Origin: an uncultured Bacilli bacterium
GTDB taxonomy: Bacteria > Bacillota_I > Bacilli_A > RF39 > UBA660
Direction of reading: 5' to 3'
Length of the DNA: 64,000 bases
Assembly: GCA_910586295.1 (NCBI GenBank)
Contig: CAJUGE010000018.1
Location: forward strand, 10,717 to 74,716
The notes under the pieces are model-generated. The model was not told the DNA's origin. It ran no database searches and worked only from the letters and a program-made list of their open reading frames with translations. Positions 11,437 to 13,458 of the stretch are shown one piece after another. The number at the start of each line of letters is the position of its first letter. Positions within the stretch are counted from its first letter, which is position 1. Position numbers and translations under genes: made by a program.

Positions 11437-11604
11437 ATGAAAACAAAAATTACTATTGAAAATAAAGAATTAAATAACCTAGTGGAACACAGTATGAAAT
11501 TGTCTTTAATTAAATTGCTTTTATTAAAAGGGGAAATAACTGAAAAGGAATTTTCTAAATTAAAAGATGTAATTAAACGAGAGCATTTTCCACTAAAAAC
11601 ATAG
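11437..11604 (+). CDS. Small 55-aa protein (MKTKITIENKELNNLVEHSMKLSLIKLLLLKGEITEKEF...) upstream of the recombinase; candidate recombinase accessory / directionality factor
   Basis: Below the track threshold; AAGGAG RBS 8 nt upstream of the ATG; homologous to the small ORF at 62170-62322, which also precedes a serine recombinase. Confidence 0.45.
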   Translation: MKTKITIENKELNNLVEHSMKLSLIKLLLLKGEITEKEFSKLKDVIKREHFPLKT

Positions 11605-11685
11605 AATAAAGAGCAAAAATATGCTATACTTATAGCGTGAGATGAAGGTATTATAATCTAAACTCTGCTAAAGAAAGGAGTTAAA

Positions 11686-13458
11686 TTGGCGAGTGTCAAG
11701 GTTATAACCGCTAATCAATCAAGAATTAGTAAAATCACAAATGGCATCAAAAAAATAATTTTAAGGGTTTGTGCTTATTGTAGAGTAAGTACAGACAGTG
11801 AAGAACAACAAACCAGTTATAAATCTCAAAAAATTCATTATAAGAATCTTATTGAAGAACATGATGATTGGGAATTTGTAGATATTTATGCTGATGAAGG
11901 TCTATCTGGAACTAAAACTGCTAAAAGAACAGATTTCAATAGAATGATAGAGGATGCTTTAGCAGGAAAAATTGATATGATTATTGCTAAATCAATATCA
12001 AGATTTGCTAGAAATACTGTTGATACTTTAAATTATGTAAGACAATTAAGAGAAAAAAATGTAGATGTGTATTTTGAAAAAGAAAATATACATACTTTGC
12101 AAATGACAAGTGAAATGTTTTTAACATTGTATAGTGCTTTCGCTCAAGCAGAAAGTGAATCTATTTCTGAAAATGTTAAAGCAGGAGTTCGTATGAAAAT
12201 GAAAAGAGGCGAACTTGTTGGTCATTATGCTCCTTATGGTTTTATATATGATGAGGAAATAGAAAATCTAGTAGAAAATCCAAAAGAAGCATTTATCATT
12301 AGATACATTTTTGATAGATATAAAGAGGGTGTTGGAACTTCACGAATTGCAAAAGAATTGAATAATCAAAATATCCCTAGTCCAACAGGAAAAAAATGGT
12401 CTGATACAGTTATTTTTAGAATGATACGAAACGAAAAGTATGTTGGAGATTTGCTTACAGGAAAAACATATACAGATAATCCTATAAATTCAAAAAAGAA
12501 AAAGAATAAAGGCGAATTTGATATGTATTATACTGAAAATCATCATAAAGGTATTGTTGATAGAGAAACTTGGGATATTTGTCAAGAAATTGCAAATAAA
12601 AGGTCAGGAAAGTACACTGCTGATGGTAGACCAGAAAAATTTAGTCAAGTTTATCCATTTAGTAGTAAGATTATTTGTGGCTTATGTGGAGAGAACTATA
12701 TTAGAAGGTCTTGGAAAGGTCATAAAGATGGCGATCCTCGTAGAGTTGCTTGGGCTTGTAGAACTTATAATACTGACCATTTATCTTGCCAAAGTTATGG
12801 AAATGTTAAAGAATCTTATATTGAAGAATTATTTGTTAATATGTATTCTGTATTGTGTCAATATAATAAAGAGGTAATTGAGAAACTTTTAATCACAATA
12901 GAAGAAACTTTTAATAATGATGATTATTCTAAAGAACTTAAAAGTTTAGAAGCTGATATTAAAGCATATAGAGAACAACTTATGGAATTGTTAGATGTTA
13001 GACTTGCTAAAGTAATTGATAATGATGTATTTGAAGAAAAGAGTGCAAGAATAAATAAAAAAATCGAACTATTAGAACTAGAAGCAAAGAAAATTAGAGA
13101 TTACATATCACATAGAGATAAAGTTCAAGATAGGGTAGATAAATTTAAAACTATTTTTCAGAAAAATACTACATTAAAAGAATTTGATGCTGATGTATTT
13201 GAAAGTATTATTGATAAGATTATAATAGGTAGAAGGAATGAAGATGGGTCTATTGATCCATATGAAATTAGATTTGTTCTTAAAACTGGAGATGAATTAA
13301 CCGACACATTACCAATCAAAAAAATGCCTTCACAAACGAAAAATGAAAGAAGTGATACCAATGAGCGAATGGAAGAATTGCAGTCGCAGTTGGGTGCTTA
13401 TGCCCACAACGGGGAACACAGTAATCGCAAGTCCACGATCACTTATCGCAATACTTGA
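11686..13458 (+). CDS. Large serine recombinase (resolvase/invertase N-domain, recombinase domain, zinc ribbon, coiled coil)
   Basis: TTG start with AAAGGAG RBS; catalytic [11 protein letters not shown] motif, SISRFARN motif, Cys cluster CGLCGENY...C; 590 aa. Confidence 0.9.

Follow-up and report, generated by a model that had tools for sequence, protein, structure and literature searches.

The DNA analyzed here is a 64,000-nucleotide stretch (hereafter the window) from an uncultured Bacilli bacterium of the RF39/UBA660 lineage (assembly GCA_910586295.1, contig CAJUGE010000018.1, positions 10,717 to 74,716 of the forward strand). It has a G+C content of 27%, and its nearest genomic relatives are gut metagenome-assembled genomes (MAGs) labelled as uncultured Bacilli or Bacillales. 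The window holds the right end of one mobile element (element 1), inserted in the serS gene, and the left end of a second one (element 2), and each of these ends carries the same two-gene module, composed of a small open reading frame (ORF) followed by the gene of a large serine recombinase (LSR). The two modules are made up of the following features:

11421-11426, plus strand: ribosome-binding site (RBS) of small ORF 1, AAGGAG, 10 nt before the ATG
11437-11604, plus strand: small ORF 1, ATG start, 55 aa, predicted divergent helical hairpin of the SHOCT_2 family
11605-11685, plus strand: intergenic region 1, 81 nt between small ORF 1 and LSR 1
11675-11680, plus strand: RBS of LSR 1, AAGGAG
11686-13458, plus strand: LSR 1, TTG start, 590 aa, final gene of element 1
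62156-62162, plus strand: RBS of small ORF 2, AAGGGGA
62170-62322, plus strand: small ORF 2, TTG start, 50 aa, predicted divergent helical hairpin of the SHOCT_2 family
62323-62408, plus strand: intergenic region 2, 86 nt between small ORF 2 and LSR 2
About 62400-62404, plus strand: RBS of LSR 2, within intergenic region 2
62409-64000 (window end), plus strand: LSR 2, ATG start, 530 aa visible, gene cut by the window end

The original prediction, which described this recurrent module from the letters of the window, proved correct in every particular. Both modules were found where it had placed them, each small ORF precedes its recombinase gene on the same strand and has its own RBS, and the identity of the recombinase N-termini, put at about 65%, was measured at 67% over the first 180 residues, the two LSRs being 47% identical overall. 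The small ORFs, said to be homologous, share 39% identity over 38 residues (BLASTP, E = 1e-5), and an alignment of their two family profiles gave an hhalign probability of 96% (E = 2.6e-9).

Judging by their domain architecture, both large proteins are large serine recombinases. The Resolvase, Recombinase (DNA-binding domain 1, DBD1) and Zn_ribbon_recom (DBD2) domains were all above the Pfam cut-offs in LSR 1 (6.5e-35, 1.2e-24 and 3.9e-11, respectively) and in LSR 2 (8.2e-33, 1.8e-27 and 2.2e-8), the nucleophile-serine motif is present in both, and residues from about 395 to 480 appeared heptad-like and charged by eye. The catalytic domain of LSR 1 is nearest to that of a conjugative transposon recombinase (PDB 3G13, 2.8e-56), and the protein has a long C-terminal extension of roughly 100 aa with a weak match to DUF4368. 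A close relative of LSR 2 (locus L022; 95% identity at the DNA and 97% at the protein level) has a full length of 585 aa. The best NCBIfam match of the window LSRs was CcrB, with 142.9 and 177.7 bits against an equivalog cut-off of 900, and membership of the SCCmec Ccr recombinases (CcrA/B/C) was rejected, these scores being far under the equivalog cut-offs of 700-900 bits.

The association of the small ORF with the recombinase was then followed in 80 loci carrying relatives of the window LSRs (35-97% identity), drawn from reference genomes and MAGs and including Streptococcus, Enterococcus, Anaerococcus, Peptoniphilus, Finegoldia, Lachnospiraceae, Faecalibacterium, Bacillales, Erysipelotrichaceae, and others. 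A hidden Markov model (HMM) of the window families detected a same-strand small ORF directly upstream of the LSR gene in 64 loci, and a similar ORF that fell under the threshold was seen by eye in five more (69/80, about 85%). This ORF ends 18-154 nt, and mostly 53-73 nt, before the LSR start. By comparison, only two weak matches (E of 0.06-0.07) were obtained among 414 control ORFs located on the opposite strand, far upstream, or downstream. An independent HMM, constructed from 53 small ORFs that precede distant LSRs and leaving out the families of the window itself, was run against all window ORFs of 25 aa or more (460 in total). It ranked small ORF 1 (E = 1.9e-8) and small ORF 2 (E = 1.8e-6) at the top, the next one having an E-value of 0.0015. 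The independent HMM and the control ORFs thus rule out that the small ORFs are chance occurrences, and the search of other genomes, suggested as a check of the pairing, did not find them to be absent from homologous LSR loci.

In the reverse direction, the small gene on long contigs was found to lie directly upstream of an LSR gene, with the exception of loci L006-L011, in which an IS30-like insertion has removed the 3'-terminal part of the small ORF and taken the place of the LSR, and which read as decayed remnants of the module. This variant is the most abundant one of the small ORF 2 family (95 index blocks of the contig collection); in it (about 4001-5641 of L006), the truncated small ORF is followed by a reversed 400-aa HTH_38 (IS30-like) gene, and the remnant neighbors an asparaginyl/aspartyl-tRNA synthetase gene. 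In four independent assemblies (L012-L015), the LSR gene that follows the small ORF has the same in-frame stop (..LLNK*RNEL.., at about 5222-5233), which could reflect a pseudogene or recoding, and a second LSR-like gene located downstream is likewise split in L012 and L013, the contigs long enough to include it.

The 11 loci devoid of the small ORF are those with the most distant LSRs of the sample. Their slot upstream of the LSR gene, as in L094-L100, contains either a protein of 138-140 aa made of the Recombinase domain only (DBD1) or a second full LSR, and the slot is also occupied by a recombinase-derived gene in L102 (phi1207.3 Orf56/57) and L103 (an E. faecium plasmid).

Comparison of the elements with one another indicated that the two genes move together. 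Of 106 homology breakpoints, 43 were located 0-300 nt upstream of the small-ORF core, 18 inside it, and one downstream; between different elements with related LSRs, nucleotide homology thus mostly stops in the small ORF or a short distance before it, and the pair is therefore inherited as a unit. The window itself provides an example, since its homology to loci L022 and L023 (95%) begins at position 62083, 87 nt ahead of small ORF 2; the regulatory genes farther upstream are not the same. More generally, the gap preceding the small ORF ranges from 0 to over 1 kb and the neighboring gene can have either orientation, while the pair is constant. The divergence of the small protein follows that of the LSR (Spearman coefficient of 0.61). 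The pair is an evolutionarily stable unit across integrative and conjugative elements (ICEs) or conjugative transposons, small integrative elements, and prophage-like elements of Bacillota.

The small ORFs also bear the mark of selection at the protein level, the ratio of non-synonymous to synonymous substitution rates (dN/dS) in pairwise comparisons with relatives being 0.31 for family 1 and 0.20-0.26 for family 2. Purifying selection, which had been proposed as a check, is thus present, and the frequency of the pairing, the clustering of breakpoints at the small ORF, and these dN/dS values together uphold the proposal of a conserved partner travelling with this recombinase clade. AlphaFold2, supplied with the family alignment, predicted with confidence that small ORF 1 encodes a helical hairpin (predicted local distance difference test score of 87.6) with helices at residues 7-30 and 36-50.

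The two small proteins match the Pfam family SHOCT_2 (PF20612) with 20.5 bits (E = 5e-4) for small ORF 1 and 14.2 bits (E = 0.05) for small ORF 2, both under the gathering cut-off of 24 bits, as are the matches obtained with 17 of 26 members of their families. However, relatives encoded upstream of related LSRs pass the cut-off (24.0-30.4 bits), and the window proteins, being homologous to them at the profile level, are therefore divergent SHOCT_2 members. Some relatives also match SHOCT (PF09851) weakly. In metagenomes, homologs grouped at 90% identity into 13 clusters for the small ORF 1 family and 82 for the small ORF 2 family, and a profile search gave 72 representatives at 50% identity; the two sub-families of the window were found only in gut metagenomes and MAGs, and a scan of viral contigs with the small-ORF alignment gave no confirmed relatives. 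Databases name the relatives SHOCT domain-containing protein, conjugal transfer protein, uncharacterized membrane protein, hypothetical protein, or Conjugative transposon protein Tn1549-like, CTn2-Orf33. The remark that such factors are mostly unannotated is therefore not quite right here: the sequence family is already catalogued, both in Pfam and under routine PGAP names, and the window copies add new, divergent members to it.

The nearest known pairing is that of CTn2 of C. difficile 630, where CTn2-Orf33 accompanies the LSR CD0436, an adjacency deduced from the cluster name and from loci L052 and L090; CTn2 was reported to excise and transfer (PMC3158075). The same pairing is present and annotated in Erysipelothrix phi1605 (SER90K_82/83) and in Anaerococcus prevotii pAPRE01 (APRE_RS09780/RS09035), and is present in Streptococcus phi-SsuZKB4_rum with the small ORF unannotated. 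In all of these, an ORF of 42-56 aa encoding a hairpin ends about 50-70 nt before a same-strand LSR, as in the layout of the window, the LSRs share 38-42% identity with LSR 2, and profile comparison shows the small proteins to be homologs of those of the window. The window proteins differ from them in being about 25-35% identical, in falling under the SHOCT_2 cut-off, and in forming two sub-families of their own.

The SHOCT domain (PF09851) was first described as a short pair of amphipathic helices, as in the window proteins, but as a C-terminal appendage of larger proteins, whereas the hairpin studied here is free-standing and tied to a recombinase gene; oligomerization was tested in that work and not supported, and the function was left open (PMC3581485). 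A further parallel is offered by SCCmec CcrA/CcrB, phi1207.3 Orf56/Orf57, and the recombinase triplets of Enterococcus plasmids, which all have a co-oriented partner gene immediately upstream of a related LSR, CcrB and CcrC also being the best NCBIfam matches of the window LSRs (143-178 bits vs. 900). In these two-component operons, however, the partner is recombinase-derived (a full LSR or a Recombinase-domain-only protein), whereas that of the window is a 50-aa hairpin.

Recombination directionality factors (RDFs) stimulate attL x attR and inhibit attP x attB recombination by their cognate LSR, and bind at the junction between DBD2 and the coiled coil. We tentatively propose, with somewhat less than even confidence, that the small protein is a dedicated accessory factor of the LSR acting at the protein level, and possibly an RDF-like one. 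The hairpin would bind its LSR and tune when, or in which direction, recombination runs. Indirect support for an accessory role comes from the strict synteny, from the recombinase-derived partners that occupy the same slot in sister clades, which by analogy may favor such a role, and from a size in the range of known RDFs. The small gene sits on the same mobile element as the LSR gene, adjacent to it in both window elements and in 64-69 of the 80 related loci. Known LSR RDFs, such as SPbeta SprB, skinCd CD1234, A118 Gp44, phiC31 gp3, Bxb1 gp47, and yin HEQ52_18460, are small element-encoded partners with no shared fold (PMC12286644), and several of them have 50-75 aa, like the window proteins (PMC5025042, PMC10747680, PMC12286644), CD1234 being 72 aa long (PMC5025042). 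The small protein would be functionally coupled to recombination.

Several points weigh against this proposal. The related transposon-type LSRs TndX and TnpX are not known to need a cofactor for either excision or integration. Comparison of the mirror trees by LSR domain gave about equal correlations (0.46-0.60), with no preference for the coiled coil or the zinc ribbon, and this domain co-evolution test was therefore uninformative; a Foldseek search with the hairpin was likewise uninformative on function, neither this search against the PDB nor a profile search of PDB sequences giving anything significant. The putative promoters lying in the gap between the two genes are weak in the window (score of 9, with p = 0.2 in region 1 and p = 0.3 in region 2). 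In addition, Shin et al. describe RDF genes as characteristically lacking synteny with the integrase gene and as unconserved between systems (PMC12286644), whereas the SHOCT_2 gene is adjacent to the LSR gene and belongs to one family over a large clade. Neither CD1234 nor the yin candidate HEQ52_18460, the experimentally defined RDFs of clostridial LSRs, is adjacent to its LSR gene and, according to their authors, CD1234 has no database similarity and the yin candidate differs from it. Shin et al. also speculated that a C-terminal extension may occlude the canonical RDF site and that LSRs of this kind perhaps have no canonical RDF (PMC12286644). With their extension of roughly 100 aa, the window LSRs are of this type. 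In the literature on SHOCT, RDFs, CTn2, and the yin and skin elements, we found no paper giving the small ORF a function or remarking on its association with an LSR. Excisionases (Xis proteins with winged-helix or MerR-like helix-turn-helix (HTH) folds) were considered and rejected, no such family being among the Pfam, NCBIfam, and PHROGs matches and the structural model being a plain hairpin.

The small protein might instead regulate the expression of the LSR, repressing or activating its synthesis by binding DNA or RNA in the intergenic region, an explanation that we regard as unlikely. It draws on the unusual conservation of this region in relatives. In about half of the non-redundant ones, a sigma-70-type promoter was predicted in the gap (p ≤ 0.03 vs. 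shuffled sequences), with a −35 element (TTGAnn) that overlaps the TGA stop codon of the small ORF and, at a spacing of 17 nt, a −10 element located 30-48 nt from the start of the LSR gene; in L025 and L031, this promoter reached a score of 11 (p ≤ 0.005). A conserved ACTAT..AGGAAYACAAAA stretch, which may be an operator or an element of the 5' untranslated region, precedes the Shine-Dalgarno sequence, itself conserved. The strong conservation of this noncoding sequence (L034, L036, L047, L053, L063, L065, L070, L074, L077, L080-L082, and others) extends to loci with only about 60% identity between their LSRs, and the authors of the SHOCT study speculated on nucleic-acid binding (PMC3581485). 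Against regulation of this kind, no DNA-binding domain of Pfam is recognizable in the hairpin of 45-55 aa, and the window intergenic regions, which are longer (81-86 nt) than those of the CTn2-type relatives, do not have the TTGAnn/AGGAAYACAAAA layout, the motif being absent or vestigial. Moreover, an inverted repeat, TTGTGTTCC...GGAACACAA, was seen in Bacillales loci, but none common to all clades was found. A conserved RNA hairpin was rejected, since RNAalifold gave no consensus structure on 18 intergenic regions, and the window regions fold no better than shuffled sequences. The terminator scans detected no terminator between the small ORF and the LSR in either window module. The elements recognized in the window gaps are as follows, none of the −10-like boxes being significant by itself:

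11622-11630, plus strand: −10-like box TGcTATACT (TG at 11622-11623, hexamer at 11625-11630), lying in the palindrome GCTATA-CT-TATAGC at 11623-11636
11652-11657, plus strand: −10-like box TATAAT, intergenic region 1
62351-62356, plus strand: −10-like box TATAAT, intergenic region 2
62367-62383, plus strand: small hairpin GACATT-TATTT-AATGTC, intergenic region 2 (fold z-score of −0.65, not significant)

It is improbable, in our view, that the small gene serves another function of the element, such as conjugal transfer, replication, or exclusion, and neighbors the LSR only because the end of the element is conserved. The names conjugal transfer protein and CTn2-Orf33, found in UniProt and NCBI, and a DarB-like antirestriction gene adjoining module 1, typical of transferable elements, are in line with such a function. 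Nevertheless, the conjugal transfer label could be traced to no experiment, the upstream neighbors change while the pair stays, and the pairing is kept in small elements with an ATP-binding cassette (ABC) transporter as cargo, in the phage records phi1605 and phi-SsuZKB4_rum, and in a conjugative plasmid. In L022, for example, the LSR gene is followed by ABC-transporter cargo.

Finally, it is very improbable that the small ORF is a leader whose translation, rather than product, controls the LSR by coupling, attenuation, or promoter occlusion: the ORF is indeed short, immediately upstream, and on the same strand, with a stop codon that overlaps the −35 element of the LSR promoter in many relatives, but its amino-acid sequence remains conserved across orders at identities as low as about 25-30%, its amphipathic pattern is fixed, its dN/dS is 0.2-0.3, its fold is predicted with confidence, the LSR has a strong RBS of its own 50-90 nt away, and no attenuator or terminator structure was found.

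If the small protein is an accessory factor of the recombinase, as we tentatively propose, the arrangement of the genes suggests how it might operate. The small gene would be transcribed with upstream regulated genes of the element, which in element 2 would lie downstream of a divergent promoter controlled by a repressor. The following features were recognized at the left end of this element:

60617-61267, minus strand: XRE/cI-type HTH repressor (HTH_3, 9e-11), divergent from the operon of small ORF 2
61286-61258, minus strand: promoter-like site, divergent from that at 61306-61334
61306-61334, plus strand: promoter-like site, TTGACA-17-TACACT with TG
61377-61634, plus strand: 85-aa gene with a weak likeness to a DnaD-like/HTH (HTH_36-like) protein, phrog_186
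61817-62089, plus strand: 90-aa gene between the 85-aa gene and small ORF 2

This layout, in which an XRE repressor is divergent from a putative promoter, resembles a lysogeny switch. The site at 61306-61334 would drive the 85-aa gene, the 90-aa gene, small ORF 2, and LSR 2, between which the terminator scan detected no terminator. The LSR would also be producible alone from a promoter between the two genes of the module; the gap promoters of the window being weak, this separate expression is inferred from the relatives. The LSR alone would then lead to integration or maintenance, and the LSR together with its partner, after induction, to excision. The expression logic of RDFs, in which the partner is induced and the LSR constitutive, may be similar to that of the window module.

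The surroundings of module 1 are different and comprise:

2125-8925: DarB-like antirestriction protein, 2266 aa (phrog_10089, 1696 bits; helicase/methylase families), upstream of module 1
11356-11385, plus strand: terminator-like AT-rich hairpin, with a 9-bp stem and a GAAA loop, followed by a run of eight U
13412-13552 (junction region from 13343), plus strand: right junction of element 1 and 3' fragment of serS, with the crossover at about 13416-13424

The hairpin at 11356-11385 stands between an upstream 250-aa gene and module 1 and could well be an intrinsic terminator. Its centroid fold has an energy of −9.7 kcal/mol (z-score of −2.6 vs. shuffled sequences), and it was missed by the consensus terminator scan, which is based on G+C, because its stem has fewer than three G-C pairs. 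With the DarB-like gene and this hairpin upstream, small ORF 1 and LSR 1 look like a discrete unit. At a similar place upstream of its small ORF/LSR pair, Erysipelothrix phi1605 has a gene of helicase type whose annotation reads type III restriction enzyme res subunit.

At the other end of module 1, contig L001 is 99.9% identical to the window as far as position 13423 and diverges beyond. Both copies of element 1 (that of the window and that of L001, where the corresponding region is 7944-8140) run into serS C-termini of different alleles, which places element 1 in the 3' end of serS. The fragment visible in the window, the 5' part of the gene being outside it, matches positions 384-418 of the TIGR00414 serS model. 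We infer an attR site of element 1 in serS at about 13416-13424. As the ORF of LSR 1 reads across the junction between element and host, its last ~12 codons are host-encoded and differ between hosts; the final element-encoded bases at the junction also give serS-like residues in another frame. Just past the serS fragment, two separate ORFs correspond to the N-terminus of an AAA_14 ATPase (13681-13950) and to a DUF4143 C-terminus (14046-14882), and look like a frameshifted or interrupted AAA+/DUF4143 gene.

LSRs drive much of the gene transfer in Firmicutes, including that of resistance elements of Streptococcus, Enterococcus, and C. difficile, and they are prized as genome-engineering tools; their reverse reaction needs a cofactor. 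The search for such cofactors is notoriously difficult, since neither a sequence nor a position of the gene is common to the known RDFs (PMC12286644). A conserved small protein adjacent to the LSR across a large clade is thus an obvious candidate for a cofactor or a regulator. If it does not control excision, the family is still a highly reliable marker of this LSR clade. If it does, it would explain the switch between integration and excision of CTn2-like ICEs and related elements, provide many orthogonal integrase/cofactor pairs, and give a function to the orphan SHOCT_2 family. We are more doubtful that the whole of this very large clade of Firmicutes LSRs, which are of the single-LSR type found in ICEs, integrative mobilizable elements, and prophages and have C-terminal extensions, has the SHOCT_2 hairpin as its cognate cofactor for directionality or activity. 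Should this be true, the hairpin would be the "alternate solution to directionality" left open by Shin et al. (PMC12286644) and the first RDF-like family both conserved in sequence and strictly syntenic with the integrase, and cognate integrase/cofactor pairs would become readable from genome sequences by the hundreds.

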